Shown: positions 1-11,003 of the stretch, piece after piece
How positions within the stretch are numbered: the stretch's first letter is position 1
Layout: each line of letters starts with the position of its first letter
Assembly: GCA_050125095.1 (NCBI GenBank)
Contig: JASFEA010000089.1
Span: forward strand, 1 to 13,124
DNA length: 13,124 nt
Direction of reading: 5' to 3'
Source of the DNA: a bacterium
GTDB lineage: Bacteria > Arandabacterota > Arandabacteria > Arandabacterales > JALGWA01
The notes under the pieces: generated by a model
Database searches by the model: none
Seen by the model: only the letters and a program-made list of their open reading frames with translations
What the model was told of the DNA's origin: nothing
Program-made: the position numbers and the translations under genes

Positions 1-2
1 CC

Positions 3-266
3 AACCTGTCGGCGCTGGTGTGCTACAGGGGATACTCGAAGGCGGAGGTGCTCGAGTCCGCCGCGAGGGGCAGGCGCTTCCCGAGCGGGGTCACGCGTTT
101 CAGCGTTCCCAAGAGGGCTTTGTCGCTAAGCGTGCCGCTCACGCTGCTCAAGGACCGGGACTCGCTCGAGGGTAAGCAGGCCAGGGTGGACATGCTGATT
201 GAGAACAAGATAAAGCAGAGGAAGATAAGGTTCTACGAAGAGCCGACGTTCTATTTCGATGAGTAG
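3..266 (+). CDS. Partial (5'-truncated by window) ParB/Srx-fold protein, SbnI/SerK-like putative free L-serine kinase, C-terminal part
   Basis: The frame is open from position 3 (NLSALVCYRG...) to TAG 264-266. The translation 'YSKAEVLESAARGRRFPSGVTRFSVPKRALSLSVPLTLLK...IRFYEEPTFYFDE' follows the SbnI C-terminal pattern as I recall it (P-x-GVTRF...R-x-L-x-L-x-VPL-x-LLK...R-x-Y-x-E). The N-terminal catalytic part lies outside the window. Confidence 0.7.
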   Translation, partial: NLSALVCYRGYSKAEVLESAARGRRFPSGVTRFSVPKRALSLSVPLTLLKDRDSLEGKQARVDMLIENKIKQRKIRFYEEPTFYFDE

Positions 267-336
267 AGAAAGAGTAGCGCGTATGGATAGAGAGCAGGGA
301 TAGAGAATGTGGATAGAGACTATGAGCGAATAGAGA
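261..336 (+). repeat. Five dispersed GRRTAGAGA 9-mers in the purine-rich trpB2 leader
   Basis: GAGTAGAGA 261-269; GGATAGAGA 285-293, 298-306 and 311-319 (exact 13-nt period); GAATAGAGA 328-336. Confidence 0.8.
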
Positions 337-365
337 ACATGAACAGAACCGCGAGGAGGTAAGAA

Positions 366-1730
366 ATGGAACAGGTCAAGTTCACGCTGGAAGATAAGGA
401 AATACCCAGGGCATGGTACAACATCGTGCCTGACCTGGGCGGCCTGCCGCTCCCGGTGCTGCACCCTGCCACCGGCCAGCCCGTGGGGCCCGACGATCTC
501 AAGCCCATTTTCCCGATGGCGCTGATACTGCAGGAAGTGAGCCAGGAGAGACATATAGACATCCCGGAGGAAGTGCTCGAAGCCTATCTCGGCTGGCGGC
601 CGACTCCGCTGGTGAGGGCCAGGAAGCTCGAGAAAGCGCTCGGGACGCCTGCCAGGATCTACTTCAAGCATGAGGGCGTGAGTCCCACCGGCAGCCACAA
701 GCCCAACACGGCCGTGGCGCAGGCCTATTACAACAGGCAGGAGGGTGTGAAGAGACTGACGACCGAGACGGGCGCCGGGCAATGGGGCAGCGCGCTCAGT
801 TTCGCGTGCAATGTGTTCGGCCTCGAGTGCAAGGTCTACATGGTCAAGGTGAGCTATGAGCAGAAGCCCTACCGCAGGATCATGATGGAGTCATGGGGCG
901 CGTCGGTTGTCCCCAGTCCCAGCAGGGACACCAACGCGGGCAGGACAATACTCGAGGAGATCCCGGACACCACCGGGAGTCTCGGCATGGCCATAAGCGA
1001 GGCCGTGGAGGACGCCGCGACGAGTGACGTCACCAAGTACTCACTGGGCAGCGTTTTAAACCACGTGCTCATACACCAGACGGTCATAGGGCTCGAGGCC
1101 AGGAAACAGATGGAGAAGACCGGCGACTATCCCGACGTCGTTATCGGCTGCGTCGGCGGCGGCTCCAATTTCTCGGGTCTGGCGCTGCCTTTCATCAAGG
1201 ATAAACTGGAGGGCCGCGACCTCCGGGCCGTGGCGGTCGAGCCGACCGCCTGCCCGACCCTTACACGGGGCCTCTTCGCGTATGACTTCGGCGACGCCGC
1301 GGGCATGACGCCGCTTCTCCCCATGTTCACTCTCGGCCATAAGTTCGTTCCCCCTGCCATACATGCAGGCGGACTCCGTTATCACGGCGACAGCCCTCTG
1401 CTCTGCGAGCTGGTGAGGCGGAAACTGGTCGAGGCGCGGGCGTACGGCCAGACCGAGGTGTTCGACGCCGCAATCATGTTCGCCAGAACCGAGGGCATTC
1501 TCGCGGCGCCGGAGACGGCGCACGCCATCAAGGCGGCGGTCGATGAGGCGCTCGACGCCAGGAAGAAAGAAGAGGAGCGGGTCATACTCTTCAATCTGAG
1601 CGGCCACGGCCACTTCGACCTGGCTGCCTATGACGCATATCTCAGCGGCAATCTCAAGGACGAGCCGCTTTCAGAGGACAAACTCAAGCAGGCGATGGAG
1701 GATCTCAAGGACTTCCCGAAAGCCGAATGA
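366..1730 (+). CDS. trpB2: TrpB-like PLP-dependent enzyme, type-2 tryptophan synthase beta chain (TrpB2)
   Basis: 454 aa. SD GAGGAGGT at 353-360 before ATG 366. Motifs: PLP lysine [23 protein letters not shown] phosphate loop, HAGGLRYHG, and NLSGHG (TrpB2-type, versus SGRG in TrpB1). N-terminal IPxxWYN extension typical of TrpB2. No trpA adjacent. Confidence 0.95.
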
Positions 1731-1820
1731 GCATAAGAGCTGATTAACCCAACAGCTTGGCAGTCCGGAGGGAGTCAGTAGGATTTGCCGGAATGCACGC
1801 GACCCGGGTGGAAGCGGCCG

Positions 1821-4793
1821 CTACTTGATCGTTATGATCTTGCGGGTGAGAGTCCCCATGGCCGTTTTCACCCGGAGGTAGTAAACGCCGGGCGCGACCC
1901 GCTGTCCTGCGTCCGAGTTGCTTTCCCAACGGGCCACCGCTCCGCCGTCCAGCTTGAGGACCGGGAGCTCCGCCACGAGCTGCCCGGTAACGTCGTATAT
2001 CGAGCAGGCCGCCGGGCCCGAACCGGCGCCCATCAGCTCCACGTTCACTTCGCCCGGCGACGGGTTGGGATAGACAAGCAGCCTGAGCGGCGACGCCGCC
2101 GGTCCCCGGTCGCCGGCCTTTCCCGAGGGTCTCAGCAGGAAGCCCTCCTCCGTCACGCTGTGTTTGCCGTGCGGATAGTCCACCGCCACAATCCTCAGGT
2201 AGTCGTTCTCGGTAACGAAGGACTCCGGCCCGAATTCATAGCCGGGCTCGGTAATACCGCTCAGCCTGAGCACTCCTTCGGAGAAGGCGGGGTCAGAGGA
2301 GATCTCCAGCTCATAGTAGCCGCCCTCGCCGCAGGTGTGATCCCAGGTAACATACATGCCGAGTTCCTCGGGGAGCTTCTCGATGTTGACATGCTGTGGC
2401 GCCCCCGGGGGCGGGGTCAGGCGTGTGAATGTGTAGGCCTCGAAATCGCTCACCCTCAGGAGCCCGGACGAGGACGAAGACGAGATCGATCCGGCAGTGG
2501 AGTCTATGGCGGTCACGAAGACCGTATGCTCTCCCAGGAGCAGGGGCGGCAAGGTGAACTGCCATCCCACACTCGTGCCGCTTCCTGTGATTGTGGCCTC
2601 ATCCCACTCGCCTCTCAGCCCGTCGACTTTGTAGAGGACCTTCATGATGCCGAAGTTCCTGGGAGTCCTCATGGATGTGGCGGTCCCCGTTAAGGTCGGC
2701 GTGGAGGAGTAGGAGATATGTCCTGCCAGCGAGTCGATTTCGACCTGGAGCCTCGGCGAGATCCTGTCCCTCAGTTTCATTATGCTTATGGAATTACTTG
2801 CGTGATTCGAAACATAGAGCTTTTCGAGCACGGGATCGTAGGCGCTCGCATGGGGCTCGTACCCGACAGGCAGGATCATAGAGGTCTGCGAAACCCCGTC
2901 GATCACCGTGAGCGTGCTCAGGTCCCAGCTCACGCTGTAGACCTTGTTGAGATAGGGGTCGACGTGGACTTCGAAGAGACCGATGTCACCCCTGATCGGC
3001 GTCCGTTCATATGTGTCGCCGTCTATGGCAATGACCTCGCCGTCGAGACCGCTGGAAGCGTAGATTGTGTTGGTCAGCCTGTTAATCGCCAACGCCCGCG
3101 GCGTGGAACCCGAAGGAATCACCCTGCGTTCCAGCGTCGTCCCGTCCACCTCGGAGATGGTTCTGTCATTGCTGTCCGCCACGAAGATCTTGTTGGTCGC
3201 GGGGTTCACCCTGATCTGCGTGGGCCCGGCCCCGACCGGGGCGAATGACGTGGAAAGAGTCGCGCCGTCCACGACCGTGAGACTCCAAGTGGTCCTGTTT
3301 GCGGCGTATATCCTGTTGTCCTCGAGATTGGTCGCCACAAAGCATGGGTAGTTGCCCGTGCGGACAAGCGCCGTGTCCAGGGTGGCTGCGTCTATCACCG
3401 ACAGATCGGCGGAGCTGCGGTTGGTGACGTAGACCCTGCCCGTGTTGGAATTGCTGTCTATCCCGTGCGGATAGGCGTGCACAGGCACCATGAGAGTGTC
3501 GGAGCTTCCGGCTCTCCTCACCGTGACCGCGCCGCTCCAGGCGCATACCACGTAGACGTCACCCGTCGCCGAGTCTATATGAAGGCCGTTGGGCCCGTCG
3601 GCCACCCGGAAGCTCGAAACGGCGTCCGTGTAGCCGTCTATGATTGTGGTTCTCGCCGTATAGTACCTCGGCACATAGACCTCGTGGTTCTTCAGGTTAA
3701 TGACCACGGGCCCGGGGCCGCCCGAAGCGTCCACCGTGGCGCCGTCGTAGTCAGCCGCCTCCAGTATGTCGACGGACGGGCCGTCAGGATCGGCGACGTA
3801 GCATTTGTTTGTTATGGGATTAAAGAGGCAGGCGGACGGGGCGCCGCCGACGTCTATGAGCAACGTATCCCCTGCTGAGGTTACTTCCGCGACCAGACCC
3901 TGGGCCGGCATTACCGCGAATGCCCGGTCTGAGAGGGCGTCCACAGCTACTGCCTGAGGCTGCCCGGGGAGGCTTGCCTTGAGCACGGCCTGTGTCGAGG
4001 TGGTCACGATCTCAAGGGCGCTGCCTCCGGCCGAGTAAAGCTTGCCGGTCTCGGTGTTTACGGCCAGGGCGACGGGGTTTTGCGTGAGCGCCACCGTGGA
4101 CGTCGTCCCCGAGTCGATGTCCAATACGGTGATGGACGCACCCGCCGAATTCGCGACGTATACCTCGCCGCGCTCGGGGTCTATCTCTATCGCCGCGGGC
4201 TCAGAGCCCGCCGCGTAATAAGAGGTGTCGGTGCCGGCCACGTCGAACTCGAAGATGAGGCCGGTGCTGGAGAGAGAGGCGAAGCCATGGCCCGTAAGAG
4301 GGTCGACGGCCACGGCTACCGGCGTGCCGTTAGTGATGAAGGTTCTTGCGACCGATGTGCCGGCGATTACCACGATTCTGCTCCCGGCGGGATCGCATAT
4401 GCAGGCGAGGCCTCTTGCCGGGTCGACCGCCATAGCGCCCGGGCTTCCGCCCGTCGTGACGGTGGAAGTATCGCCCGAGTCTATATTGATAAGGCTCACG
4501 ACGCCGCCCGCCGGCTGGGCTGCGAATAGAATCCTCCGGGCCGGGTCGATCGCCAGCGAACCGGCTGTGCCCGGTAGGTTTATTGATGTCGTCTCCTGGG
4601 TGGGCTCCTCGATCCTCAGGACGGTCGAGGTGCCCGTGGTCGCGAAGAGGTCTCTCGTCACGGGGTCCATCACGAGAGCGCCCGGGCTCTCCGCCAGGTC
4701 GATTTCGCCGGTCTGCCAGATCGCGCCTGCAACGGATGCATACAGAACGACAATCGCGGCAAATATGGGCGTACTTCTCACAAGACCTCTCAC
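1821..4793 (-). CDS. Secreted YVTN/YncE-type beta-propeller repeat protein with Ig/FN3-like region and C-terminal T9SS type A / FlgD-Ig-like domain
   Basis: Long ORF (track 1821..4808). Likely start is GTG 4793, after SD AGGAG. Signal peptide (IFAAIVVLYASVAGA). Many ~40-aa repeats such as 'P..IAVDP..G.VYVAN.....ITVID'. C-terminus YPNP...IYDVTGQLV...W...G..VAPGVYY...KIITIK. Confidence 0.88.
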   Translation of the reverse strand: MRGLVRSTPIFAAIVVLYASVAGAIWQTGEIDLAESPGALVMDPVTRDLFATTGTSTVLRIEEPTQETTSINLPGTAGSLAIDPARRILFAAQPAGGVVSLINIDSGDTSTVTTGGSPGAMAVDPARGLACICDPAGSRIVVIAGTSVARTFITNGTPVAVAVDPLTGHGFASLSSTGLIFEFDVAGTDTSYYAAGSEPAAIEIDPERGEVYVANSAGASITVLDIDSGTTSTVALTQNPVALAVNTETGKLYSAGGSALEIVTTSTQAVLKASLPGQPQAVAVDALSDRAFAVMPAQGLVAEVTSAGDTLLIDVGGAPSACLFNPITNKCYVADPDGPSVDILEAADYDGATVDASGGPGPVVINLKNHEVYVPRYYTARTTIIDGYTDAVSSFRVADGPNGLHIDSATGDVYVVCAWSGAVTVRRAGSSDTLMVPVHAYPHGIDSNSNTGRVYVTNRSSADLSVIDAATLDTALVRTGNYPCFVATNLEDNRIYAANRTTWSLTVVDGATLSTSFAPVGAGPTQIRVNPATNKIFVADSNDRTISEVDGTTLERRVIPSGSTPRALAINRLTNTIYASSGLDGEVIAIDGDTYERTPIRGDIGLFEVHVDPYLNKVYSVSWDLSTLTVIDGVSQTSMILPVGYEPHASAYDPVLEKLYVSNHASNSISIMKLRDRISPRLQVEIDSLAGHISYSSTPTLTGTATSMRTPRNFGIMKVLYKVDGLRGEWDEATITGSGTSVGWQFTLPPLLLGEHTVFVTAIDSTAGSISSSSSSGLLRVSDFEAYTFTRLTPPPGAPQHVNIEKLPEELGMYVTWDHTCGEGGYYELEISSDPAFSEGVLRLSGITEPGYEFGPESFVTENDYLRIVAVDYPHGKHSVTEEGFLLRPSGKAGDRGPAASPLRLLVYPNPSPGEVNVELMGAGSGPAACSIYDVTGQLVAELPVLKLDGGAVARWESNSDAGQRVAPGVYYLRVKTAMGTLTRKIITIK

Positions 4794-4806
4794 GGCCTCT
4801 CCTAAC

Positions 4807-4841
4807 AAAAAAACGCCGGGTCGGCATTGTTCCCGGCTTTT
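4807..4841 (-). terminator. Intrinsic-terminator-like hairpin in the 5' leader of the beta-propeller gene
   Basis: Minus strand AAAA-GCCGGG-(11 nt loop)-CCCGGC-G-TTTTTTT, immediately upstream of the SD. Confidence 0.6.
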
Positions 4842-8996: not shown

Positions 8997-11003
8997 ATGG
9001 TGAAGTGGTCTTTGATTGCGCTTGTTTTCATAATAGCCGTGCTCCCGGCCGGCGCCGCCATGTCCGCGCGCAGGGTAGTTCTCATGGAGCAGGCCACCAA
9101 CGGGGGCTGCGGTTGCGCGGGCATTCTGGACCCCGGCATGGACTCCCTGTTCGTCAGGTACGGCCATGAGGCCATCGTCTGCATAAGGTATAATGACGAC
9201 CACCCCTGGGCCTATGACGAGCTTTACGCCTATAATCCCACTCAGATAGACGCCCGCATTGCCTATTACCCCATGCCCACCATGCCCACCCTGGTAATAG
9301 ACGGCGAGCTGTCGGAGCGGGTGTGCGACGCCAACTCGCTTCCGGAGAAGTTCGAAGAGAGGTTCACGGCGCCGAGCCCGCTTATAATGACGGCGTCGGG
9401 CTCCATGGACTTGGACTCCTTCTACGTGGATATCCGTGTCATCGCCGAGGAAGACCCCGGGGCTGATACGCTCAAACTCAGAGTGGCCGTGGTGGAAGAC
9501 AGCGTCTACTACGACGCGCCCAATACCAAGCAGTACTGGACATACACATTCAGGACCATGCTTCCCGGCATCGACGGGCAGGCTTTCACAATCGCCCAGG
9601 GCGAGACCCTGGATTTCAGCCTGAGCGTCCCTCTCGACCCGGTCTGGGACGCATCGAGAGTGCTGGCCGTCGCCTTCGTCCAGAACGATGACGACAAGTC
9701 GGTGCTCCAGGCCGCAACGACCGTGCCGCGCCGCCAAACCTGGGCGGGTTATTACGGCGGCGTCTGCGGTGACATAGTCAGATCAGGTTACTCCGCTACG
9801 CTTACCGGCACATTCGTGAACCTGGGCTCTCTAAGAGACACCTTCGATATAGAGTTCACCGGGCAGCTGCCCCCCGACTGGAACGTGTACTACGATATTA
9901 CAGGCGGCGAAAGCGTCGCAGGCGACGTGGCCCTCGATCCGGACTCGGCGGCCGTAATAACCGTCAAGTACGACTGCGGATTCGACAGCGGGACCGCCGA
10001 AGCCACGATGACGTTCACTTCTCTGCGAGACGGGGCGGTTGAGAGATCGCTTGACTTCTTCACCATATCCGGCGTATGCGGCCTCCTTGTTGACGACGAC
10101 GGGGGCAACGCACTCGAGATCTTCTATGAGGACGCCCTGGACTCCGCCGGGGCCGTGTACGGCGTATGGGACCGGTCCATAGCCAGGCCGGACTCGGCAG
10201 ACCTCGAACTGGCGGATTTCGTCGTGTGGTTCACGGGCCAGGCCGCGCCCACATTGGACGATACCGACTGCGCCGCCATCGGGCCCTACCTGGACTCAGG
10301 CGGCAACTTCTGCCTGACCGGCCAGGACATAGCCTACAGCATGTGCGATCCCACGAGTTCGCATTACACCACTGAGACCAAGGCCTTCTTCGAGACATAT
10401 ATGCACGCGACTTACGTAATGCCCAATGCCAATCTCTTCGATCTCGATGGACGGGCGGGCGACGTAATAAGTGACGGCATTTCGGTTACCATCCGGGGAG
10501 GGGACGGTGCCGATAATCAGGACTTCCCTGACGTCATCGACGCCATAGCCCCGGCCGAGGTCATATTCGATTACAGCGACCCCGCCAAGCACGGCGGCAT
10601 CAGGTACGAAGGAGGGGGAACCAGGCTGGTCTATCTGTCGTTCGGCTTCGAAGCTATCGACAACCAGCATGACCGCGCAAACCTCATGTCGAATATCGTA
10701 GCCTGGCTCGCCCCGACGGCATCCGTGGACCCCGGCCTCACCGGCCCGGTCAGGATAGCGTGCTACCCCAGCCCTGCCGTCTCCTTCGCCAACATCAGCG
10801 TTGCGGGCGCCGGCGGCTGGCAGTCCCTCAAGATCTACGACGTGCAGGGGAGAGTGGTCCGGGACGCCGGCGCGAGCGAGGGGCGGGACTTCCGCTGGGA
10901 CCTCACAGACGAGAGCGGGACCCGGGTCTCGCCGGGTATCTACTTCGTGGCCGTCGCGGCCAGTGGCTCCTCGGCCACGCATAAGCTCATGATCGTGCGC
11001 TAG
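8997..11003 (+). CDS. Secreted Omp28-related (thioredoxin-like + Ig) multidomain protein with C-terminal T9SS type A / FlgD-Ig-like domain
   Basis: 668 aa. SD GGAGG and a signal peptide. Omp28-like 'RRVVLMEQAT...C', 'PTLVIDG', 'LRVAVVED', 'FR.MLP...G' and 'AFVQNDDDKSVLQA'. 'LLVDDDGG...VVWFTG...YLDSGG....TGQDI' module. CTD YPSP...IYDVQGRVV...WDLTDESGTRVSPGIYF...KLMIVR. Confidence 0.85.
   Translation: MVKWSLIALVFIIAVLPAGAAMSARRVVLMEQATNGGCGCAGILDPGMDSLFVRYGHEAIVCIRYNDDHPWAYDELYAYNPTQIDARIAYYPMPTMPTLVIDGELSERVCDANSLPEKFEERFTAPSPLIMTASGSMDLDSFYVDIRVIAEEDPGADTLKLRVAVVEDSVYYDAPNTKQYWTYTFRTMLPGIDGQAFTIAQGETLDFSLSVPLDPVWDASRVLAVAFVQNDDDKSVLQAATTVPRRQTWAGYYGGVCGDIVRSGYSATLTGTFVNLGSLRDTFDIEFTGQLPPDWNVYYDITGGESVAGDVALDPDSAAVITVKYDCGFDSGTAEATMTFTSLRDGAVERSLDFFTISGVCGLLVDDDGGNALEIFYEDALDSAGAVYGVWDRSIARPDSADLELADFVVWFTGQAAPTLDDTDCAAIGPYLDSGGNFCLTGQDIAYSMCDPTSSHYTTETKAFFETYMHATYVMPNANLFDLDGRAGDVISDGISVTIRGGDGADNQDFPDVIDAIAPAEVIFDYSDPAKHGGIRYEGGGTRLVYLSFGFEAIDNQHDRANLMSNIVAWLAPTASVDPGLTGPVRIACYPSPAVSFANISVAGAGGWQSLKIYDVQGRVVRDAGASEGRDFRWDLTDESGTRVSPGIYFVAVAASGSSATHKLMIVR

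Follow-up and report, generated by a model that had tools for sequence, protein, structure and literature searches.

A putative free-serine kinase paired with a TrpB2-type enzyme behind a tryptophan-rich leader: a candidate indole-salvage operon of uncultured bacteria

The staphyloferrin B operon encodes SbnI, a kinase that acts on free L-serine. The O-phospho-L-serine (OPS) made by such kinases is also the reported co-substrate of TrpB2 enzymes: Busch et al. are said to have shown in 2014 that Sulfolobus solfataricus TrpB2 depends on it, and Hiyama et al. reportedly assigned TrpB2 to indole salvage in Thermococcus kodakarensis in the same year. TrpB2 enzymes are likewise cited as OPS users in the available part of a later paper (PMC11917138, citing Busch 2014), and the available part of the SerK report by Makino et al. 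states that clear SerK homologues were not found in bacteria (PMC5120207). In the literature surveyed, both the role of TrpB2 and the source of its OPS are unsettled. The subject of this study is a stretch of 13,124 nt (the window; contig JASFEA010000089.1 of assembly GCA_050125095.1) from a bacterium of the phylum Arandabacterota, which opens with the 3′ end of an SbnI/SerK-like putative kinase gene followed by a trpB2 gene. Judging from sequence comparison, these genes probably form a module induced by tryptophan starvation, in which serine would be converted to OPS, and OPS and indole to tryptophan. The original prediction, made from the window alone, had suggested that such a pairing was undescribed, and a full-text literature search, which covered few subscription-journal papers, found no published kinase–TrpB2 pairing. 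In their available parts, a survey of ParB-fold proteins (PMC12704722) and a GapMind preprint of 2026 mention SbnI/SerK and draw no link to TrpB. A literature match for trpB2 with a leader peptide, the trpB2A operon of C. diphtheriae, was set aside as an unrelated use of the name.

The original prediction had also described a co-directional gene ending 99 nt before trpB2 with no terminator between the two, and a C terminus resembling that of SbnI. Both observations held. The upstream reading frame (87 residues on the + strand, TAG stop, C terminus RFYEEPTFYFDE) matched the NCBIfam SbnI model with an E value of 2.9e-10 over model positions 175–250 of 254. In a consensus scan of window positions 1–2000, the spacer was free of terminator-like and promoter-like sites, the sole sites being a promoter-like one at 1757–1784 (+) and a terminator-like one at 1224–1208 (−). 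Since a convergent gene of 995 aa ends at position 1821, the unit closes with trpB2. Coordinates of all features are collected in Table 1.

The first base of the window is the start of its contig (C89), and the terminal 127 nt of a second contig, C30, are identical to window positions 1–127; the kinase reading frame carries on into C30 as L002:795–1625. A database protein of 308 aa, P0004, is 98% identical to the part encoded on C30 and identical at 87/87 residues to the part encoded in the window. Because P0004 independently spans both parts, the join between the contigs is sound, and P0004 was used as a full-length proxy for the window kinase (approximately 308 aa). The putative start codon is a TTG at L002:840, situated approximately 9 nt behind a GGAGGT sequence, with ATG codons at 891 and 906 as alternatives. 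The N-terminal extension that the TTG start provides is kept in close relatives.

The arrangement of the two genes was surveyed in the best 80 of 134 relatives of the kinase in species-representative genomes, TrpB2 being located by tblastn with the window protein (P0002). It is apparent that the adjacency supposed in the original prediction is widely conserved. TrpB2 was found directly downstream and on the same strand in 60 of the 80 loci (60/60 of those with TrpB2), separated from the kinase gene by 11 to 519 nt (median 44; 59 gaps measured). For the 20 loci in which it was not found, the downstream sequence searched was 203 nt (L014), 46 nt (L040), approximately 850 nt (L013 and L075) and 2.2–5 kb for the rest. 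In a kinase tree of 81 rows, the linked proteins fell in one group of 64 (SH-aLRT 83), made up of 61 linked proteins together with L014, L040 and L013. The TrpB2-link label changed 3 times on this tree, as against 18.1 times in shuffles, none of which (0/500) gave a value as low. According to the labels of the records, the linked group comprises members of at least eight phyla: Gemmatimonadota, Zixibacteria, Ignavibacteriota, KSB1, Calditrichota, Krumholzibacteriota, Eisenbacteria and Marinimicrobia.

Within the window's own phylum, the kinase gene was present in 7 of 18 species genomes. A TrpB2 subtype scoring 733–756 bits occurred in exactly those seven and adjoined the kinase gene in 7/7. 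A second subtype, scoring 580–590 bits and approximately 50% identical to P0002, was found in eight genomes of the phylum and never beside the kinase gene, which was present in 0/5 of the genomes that carry only this subtype. The phylum of genome G022 yielded one close and five distant members of the kinase family in 101 sampled genomes. No kinase–TrpB2 fusion was found; a search for longer family proteins gave a single fusion, SerA-like, and is weak evidence of absence.

Several individual loci are of interest in their own right. L013 and L014 are a sister pair inside the TrpB2-linked clade; L013 has LE in place of the HE motif described below, and the 878 nt that follow its kinase gene contain no TrpB2; the leader open reading frame (ORF) of L014 retains one Trp only (…QQRWCTSG). 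The pair looks like a decaying module. The kinase gene at G008:C323:7961–8827 contains one in-frame TGA, and at L068:5771–7080 the TrpB2 match begins at query residue 116, after a gap of approximately 290 nt; these may be damaged copies or assembly errors. L034, labelled Acidimicrobiia, nests deep within the Gemmatimonadota clade of the kinase tree, for which mis-binning or mislabelling seems more likely than transfer. The loci of the unlinked TrpB2 subtype (L084–L089 and L093, from the window's phylum and G003) have neither a kinase gene nor a Trp leader nearby, and in three of the five for which ORFs were listed (L084, L085 and L087) TrpB2 lies beside a Fer4_5-type 4Fe-4S protein of approximately 260 aa.

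Upstream of the kinase gene, contig C30 carries, in order, a promoter-like site, a short leader ORF with tandem Trp codons and two terminator-like hairpins; since it lies on C30, the leader is outside the window. The 171 nt leader folds with a free energy of −81 kcal/mol (z = −4.84 versus shuffles), and its Trp codons and stop codon fall inside the first hairpin. A leader ORF with runs of 2–5 Trp codons was present on the + strand in 43 of 56 evaluable linked loci. The same search gave 0/56 on the opposite strand of these loci, a mean of 1.8 when they were shuffled, 2/20 in unlinked kinase loci (both in sister Chloroflexota, inside the upstream gene) and 0/7 before genes of the unlinked TrpB2 subtype. 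A hairpin followed by a T-tract preceded the kinase gene in 41 of the 43 leader loci, versus 9/43 on the opposite strand. Rfam gave no match in L001/L002 at E ≤ 1, nor, at the gathering score, any match in the 13 linked loci without a Trp leader. The available part of a report on trp attenuators of Corynebacterium and Streptomyces gives the same description of leader ORF, hairpin and U-tract (PMC1262725). As far as the observed anatomy goes, the kinase gene, and not trpB2 alone, would be under tryptophan control. A third small hairpin (UGCGCC...GGUGCA; L002:816–833) overlaps the GGAGG Shine–Dalgarno sequence of the TTG start, and because of this overlap translation of the kinase may be gated as well as transcription.

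The relationship of the upstream protein to SbnI and SerK was examined at full length. P0004 scored 90.7 bits against the NCBIfam SbnI model (E value 9e-26, model positions 7–249 of 254; equivalog cut-off 350) and 34.8 bits against the SerK model (equivalog cut-off 380), and the C30 fragment scored 60.2 and 29.6 bits, respectively. Since these scores miss both equivalog cut-offs, the protein is, by this measure, an orthologue of neither and belongs to a distinct subfamily of the SbnI/SerK superfamily, termed here DGxNR after its characteristic motif. A family profile built from 26 of the 88 homologues found (alignment A1) matched SbnI in the PDB with an E value of 2.4e-33 over profile positions 26–271 of 291, encompassing both domains. 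The SerK and 1vk1 entries were matched at 6e-12 to 5e-9 (1vk1 at 6.3e-12, positions 29–246; SerK at 2.8e-10 over a stretch of the N-domain). An AlphaFold model (pLDDT 83.6, pTM 0.78) had SbnI/SerK structures as all nine of its best PDB matches (Foldseek E values 8e-16 to 2e-13; 243–274 columns, TM-target 0.74–0.81), and ParB, Noc and Srx matched it in the N-domain only, over approximately 80–95 columns.

The columns conserved in A1 are HE, D-G-(A/V)-N-R, W-H-H, P-S-G-x-T-R and a C-terminal YxEPTFxFD[DE]. In SbnI, we take the catalytic Glu of the HE motif to be Glu20, and the Asp of D-G-x-H-R, a nucleotide/phosphate motif, to be Asp58. The Glu of the HE motif (E50; FHE in the window genome) aligns with H29–E30 of SerK, for which the PDB lists E30A and E30Q mutant structures. 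E50, D89, G90 and R93 are kept in 59 of the 60 TrpB2-linked loci, the 60th being truncated, and in 20/20 unlinked loci. Of the C-domain residues, P248 is retained by 58/60 linked loci, and G250 and R253 by 59/60 each. The expectation that the full-length protein would resemble SbnI and SerK was therefore borne out for the two-domain fold and the HE motif and failed for the DG-H-R motif, which reads DG(A/V)NR. The column of H123 in P0004 reads WHH in 58 of 60 linked proteins and WNH in 16 of 20 unlinked ones, and may mark a subfamily-specific residue near the active site. An exhaustive profile search returned 1,186 clusters (50% identity) at E ≤ 1e-10; the homologues of the first search, where their sources named them, were all called 'hypothetical protein'.

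The identity of the downstream gene is clear. Its 454 aa product scored 733.8 bits against the TrpB2-type model NF009057 (cut-off 366) and 654.4 bits against TIGR01415 (cut-off 518.85), and 162.4 bits against the canonical trpB model (cut-off 392). Its best PDB matches were Sulfolobus TrpB2 structures (6hul_B, 4qys and 6hte; E values 7e-133 to 3e-114, full length), with TrpB1 entries at E values around 1e-40. K112 of the GSHK motif, presumably the lysine that binds pyridoxal 5′-phosphate (PLP), and R338 of GGLRYHG, which we take to contact phosphate, are invariant in the TrpB2 alignment (A2). Arg338 is found in 53/53 linked and 7/7 unlinked TrpB2 proteins, and the corresponding residue is Asp in 3/3 TrpB1 proteins. 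The linked TrpB2 proteins keep all of the residues conserved TrpB2-wide and differ from the unlinked subtype at approximately 37 conserved positions. A complex prediction for the kinase (P0004 residues 30–308, with A1) and TrpB2 (with A2) scored 0.00 in both runs; made without controls, it is uninformative on binding.

SepRS uses free phosphoserine, and a kinase of this family was found beside it. In L069:3406–6946 the order is SepRS (459 bits, cut-off 381), kinase, SepCysS (562 bits, cut-off 365), with a 3 nt gap, an arrangement suggesting that tRNA-dependent cysteine synthesis has a phosphoserine supply of its own. This locus comes from a metagenome-assembled genome labelled Woesearchaeota, and its kinase sits on a long branch of the tree. 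In L079:5822–7724 and L082:5826–7763, the kinase gene is followed by genes for a CysM-type synthase (359 and 345 bits, respectively, on cysKM; cut-off 344), a JAB-domain/desampylase-like protein and a CymR-like Rrf2 regulator, and in P0157 a ThiS-type sulfur carrier is fused to the kinase; we take these to resemble the mycobacterial phosphoserine-dependent CysM/CysO/Mec route. A CBS-type enzyme is encoded immediately upstream of the kinase gene in L073. In P0092 and 8 of 10 extended forms examined, the kinase is fused to all or part of a SerA-like 2-hydroxyacid dehydrogenase, the SerA-like fusion proteins noted being P0092, P0174, P0198, P0218, P0225 and P0228. In 3/3 distant Gemmatimonadota relatives (L094–L096), the unfused kinase gene is flanked by a short SerA-like gene (391–398 bits on the phosphoglycerate dehydrogenase model) on one side and a class-V aminotransferase gene on the other. 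With the fusions, these clusters would amount to a possible route from serine to 3-phosphoglycerate. OPS is the one metabolite common to the TrpB2, SepRS/SepCysS, CysM, and SerA and aminotransferase partners.

The genomic background of the pair was examined for tryptophan and serine biosynthesis genes. A trpA gene was found in 3 of 16 distinct pair-carrying genomes, by a model that detected it in 14/14 reference genomes: in 1/5 of G000–G004 (G000 being the window's genome), 2/5 of G022–G026 and 0/6 further carriers of the window's phylum. G000–G003 also had no TrpB1 over the cut-off, no indole-3-glycerol phosphate synthase (trpC), no trpD over the cut-off and no chorismate-binding enzyme (trpE), the respective models having found 13 or 14 of the 14 reference genomes over cut-off; G001–G003 are chromosome records. 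The shortage of trp genes raised as a question by the original prediction was thus confirmed, and the linked TrpB2 is, as gene content indicates, the only recognisable tryptophan-forming enzyme in most carriers. Among G000–G004, phosphoglycerate dehydrogenase exceeded its cut-off in G004 only; G001 gave no match and G002 a 20-bit match, so that neither has a credible enzyme, and serC_1 was matched in 0/5. The usual source of phosphoserine may be missing in most carriers. G000 also encodes a protein of the tryptophanase/tyrosine-phenol-lyase family (G000:C4:20868–22289; 338.6 bits, TnaA cut-off 825.8), and those of G002 and G004 are closer to TnaA; such a protein could supply or consume indole within the cell.

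Operon anatomy, homology, conserved residues, co-occurrence and missing pathway genes are observed, and they are consistent with the following scheme. The operon would consist of the promoter, the Trp leader peptide with its terminator hairpins, the putative free-serine kinase gene and trpB2. When charged tRNA-Trp is scarce, transcription would, to judge from this anatomy, proceed through the leader, and both enzymes would be made. Homology, the conserved catalytic residues and the family's partners suggest that the kinase would convert free L-serine to OPS, and publications on other TrpB2 enzymes suggest that the linked TrpB2 would convert OPS and indole to L-tryptophan and phosphate. Most carriers, the window genome included, show none of the trp genes tested; there the module would act in indole salvage and would apparently be the only route to tryptophan. 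We also advance, tentatively, the broader proposal that the DGxNR branch may comprise widespread, mostly bacterial, dedicated phosphoserine suppliers in at least four consuming routes, with the attenuated operon as the sole source of tryptophan in many uncultured bacteria of FCB type that lack the trp pathway.

A number of points weigh against this scheme. Neither P0004 score comes near the respective SbnI or SerK equivalog cut-off, and the His of DGxHR is replaced by Asn in 59 of 60 linked loci (and in 19 of 20 unlinked ones, L069 having Thr; His occurs in 1 of 26 A1 rows, P0087). On both counts the substrate or phosphate donor could differ. Kinase activity is a prediction throughout the DGxNR subfamily, and the preference for OPS, published for archaeal and Thermotoga TrpB2, is carried over to the linked bacterial subtype by analogy. 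The tandem-Trp leader is absent from 13 of 56 linked loci, mostly in Zixibacteria and Ignavibacteria, and constrained minimum-free-energy folding of the window genome's leader with masked Trp codons gave no antiterminator that displaces the terminator. In Acidobacteriota and most Chloroflexota, the members of the family have no phosphoserine-related neighbour, the adjoining genes being YebC–RuvCA and a pseudouridine synthase, respectively. The gene absences in G000 rest on a draft that is 91% complete. That of serC is weak, since serC_1 missed two of its 14 controls (12 matched) and failed to match in G004, where a true phosphoglycerate dehydrogenase is present. Finally, G004 has a full trpE-D-C-...-B-A cluster besides the kinase–TrpB2 pair, and G004, G022 and G023 all carry the pair plus a complete trp operon or trpA; for this reason the module is not only a substitute for the trp pathway.

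The alternative that survives best, although we consider it unlikely, is that the upstream protein is a kinase or phosphotransferase of SbnI/SerK fold with another substrate, donor or direction, or that the linked TrpB2 subtype has a product other than tryptophan. Threonine or homoserine might be the substrate, or phosphoserine might be converted to serine, as proposed for the unrelated DUF1015 'SerBK'. The change from His to Asn and the scores far under the equivalog cut-offs would fit such a specificity, as would the approximately 37 positions at which the TrpB2 subtypes differ and the clusters with SerA and aminotransferase genes, which suit either direction of flux. Donor preference does vary within the fold, since a SerK-like ParB-fold protein is reported, in the available part of PMC12704722, to bind CTP and not ATP. 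These considerations are outweighed, in our view, by the Trp codons of the leader, which link the operon specifically to tryptophan supply, by OPS being the sole feature common to the varied family partners, and by the retention in TrpB2 of all TrpB2-wide residues, including Arg338 and the GSHK lysine.

It is improbable that the SbnI-like protein serves chiefly to regulate trpB2, through DNA binding or ligand sensing comparable to the regulatory role of SbnI in its own operon (sbn), instead of acting as a metabolic kinase. A Pfam search of the protein gave no match, and no helix–turn–helix or other DNA-binding domain was detected, although the N-domain has the ParB/Srx fold common to the DNA-binding proteins Noc and ParB (the A1 profile matched Noc at an E value of 5e-4) and NCBIfam names SbnI a 'bifunctional transcriptional regulator/O-phospho-L-serine synthase'. 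The residues conserved in the family are of catalytic type and shared with the enzyme SerK, the Trp leader already explains regulation in 43 of 56 loci, and the fusions to SerA-like and ThiS domains suit an enzyme better. Least probable of all is a conserved but functionally loose neighbourhood, in which the product of the kinase goes into serine/phosphoserine metabolism at large and TrpB2 uses any pool available: family members without a PLP-enzyme or phosphoserine-related neighbour and the pair's retention in three genomes with trpA or a complete pathway would fit it, but 7/7 co-occurrence and adjacency with one TrpB2 subtype as against 0/5 in genomes with only the other, the short gaps, and a Trp leader that precedes the kinase gene, and so is common to both genes, and not trpB2 alone, all argue against it.

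An OPS-fed, tryptophan-controlled module remains the preferred reading, and what appears to be new in it, as predicted from sequence, is the DGxNR kinase subfamily, the metabolic pairing of such a kinase with TrpB2 (itself a known kind of enzyme) and the Trp leader before the kinase gene. A dedicated kinase in a Trp-controlled operon is a concrete pathway proposal for TrpB2; if the broader proposal above is true, it would also settle what bacterial TrpB2 does physiologically and which co-substrate it truly uses. Metabolic predictions would change for several candidate phyla, namely Krumholzibacteriota, Eisenbacteria, KSB1, Zixibacteria, Ignavibacteriota and the carriers within Gemmatimonadota, and organisms whose genomes are at present rated auxotrophic for tryptophan would have to be regarded as prototrophs that need indole. 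Indole cross-feeding in sediments and soils would be implied; on the broader proposal, the carriers lacking the trp pathway would depend on indole released by their neighbours. The proposal also offers a functional handle on approximately 1,200 protein clusters that have no Pfam domain and are called 'hypothetical protein' where named, and would give the free-serine kinases a range far wider than Staphylococcus and hyperthermophilic archaea.

The remainder of the window was also inspected. Two large secreted proteins with type-IX-secretion C-terminal sorting domains, one a beta-propeller and the other Omp28-like, are encoded at 1821–4808 (−) and 8997–11003 (+), and because of them the host fits an organism of FCB-group type. 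Between their genes lie those for a GAF-PAS-PAS protein, an esterase, a DUF1028 protein and a B12-binding radical SAM enzyme. The kinase–trpB2 spacer contains three exact copies of GATAGAGA, at 286, 299 and 312 (13 nt period), plus AATAGAGA (window 286–336), and thereby holds 3 of the 4 exact GATAGAGA copies of the whole window. Tandem Repeats Finder reported nothing in this spacer, and a spaced two-copy GATAGAGA pattern was found in 0/92 other loci compared. As the pattern is not conserved there, the copies were dropped as a component of the mechanism.

Table 1. Positions of the features of the kinase–trpB2 operon. Plain numbers are window positions; those preceded by L002 refer to the upstream locus on contig C30
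Feature	Position	Strand	Remarks
3′ end of SbnI/SerK-like putative kinase gene (87 codons + stop)	3–266	+	ORF runs off the 5′ end of the window
Codons for PSGVTR, motif of the kinase C-domain	81–98	+	Shared with SbnI (GVTRF); aligned to SerK (TTRH)
Kinase–trpB2 spacer, 99 nt	267–365	+	GGAGG Shine–Dalgarno sequence a few bases before the trpB2 ATG
trpB2 (TrpB2-type PLP enzyme, 454 aa, kinase-linked subtype)	366–1730	+	
Codon of Lys112, GSHK motif of TrpB2	699–701	+	Invariant in the TrpB2 alignment
Codon of Arg338, GGLRYHG of TrpB2	1377–1379	+	Invariant in both TrpB2 subtypes
5′ part of the kinase gene	L002:840 (or 891/906) to 1625		Overlaps window 1–127
Promoter-like site, TTGACC-17-TAAAAT	L002:630–658		
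Leader ORF, 15 codons, MKDLIHIMSWWRTWT*	L002:667–714		Tandem Trp codons near the stop
Terminator-like hairpin 1	L002:~745–770		Followed by TTTTCC
Terminator-like hairpin 2	L002:783–807		10 pairs (9 GC), then a T-rich tail

Among described systems, SbnI of Staphylococcus aureus and S. pseudintermedius (PDB 5uje, 5ujd and 6nr6) is the best match in both sequence and structure (Foldseek E value ~1e-15). The HE, D-G-x-x-R, W-x-H and GVTRF motifs are shared, and by analogy a dedicated OPS supplier, putative in the present family, is encoded in each case beside the PLP enzyme that would consume its product, SbnA there and TrpB2 here. The two proteins are, however, only 23–25% identical; SbnI has DGVHR where the present family has Asn for His, and the latter is approximately 40–50 residues longer, the conserved C-terminal YxEPTFxFD[DE] included. 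Control is by iron and heme in the one and by a Trp leader in the other, and the hosts are Bacillota in the one and uncultured phyla of FCB type in the other. The two-domain fold and the Glu aligned with E30 are likewise common to the window family and SerK of T. kodakarensis (TK0378; PDB 5x0b and 1vk1), with which identity is 18–19%. SerK carries DGHHR, is ADP-dependent, and serves cysteine synthesis and serine assimilation. Its homologues in Desulfurococcales adjoin genes for 3-phosphoglycerate dehydrogenase and an aminotransferase, according to the available part of PMC5120207, a neighbourhood like that of the bacterial loci L094–L096.

The downstream enzyme shares with Sulfolobus solfataricus TrpB2 the residues conserved TrpB2-wide, including Arg where TrpB1 has Asp. 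In Sulfolobus and Thermococcus, a trp operon is present and TrpB2 genes are not reported beside a serine kinase gene, whereas here one bacterial subtype is strictly kinase-linked and, as its leader suggests, attenuator-controlled. To our knowledge, trp leader attenuators are little described in the carrier phyla. The leader found here resembles the classical trp attenuators of Proteobacteria and Actinobacteria in its short ORF, its 2–5 UGG codons near the stop, its GC-rich hairpin and its U-tract; those attenuators control trpE...A, whereas this one would control the kinase–trpB2 pair.

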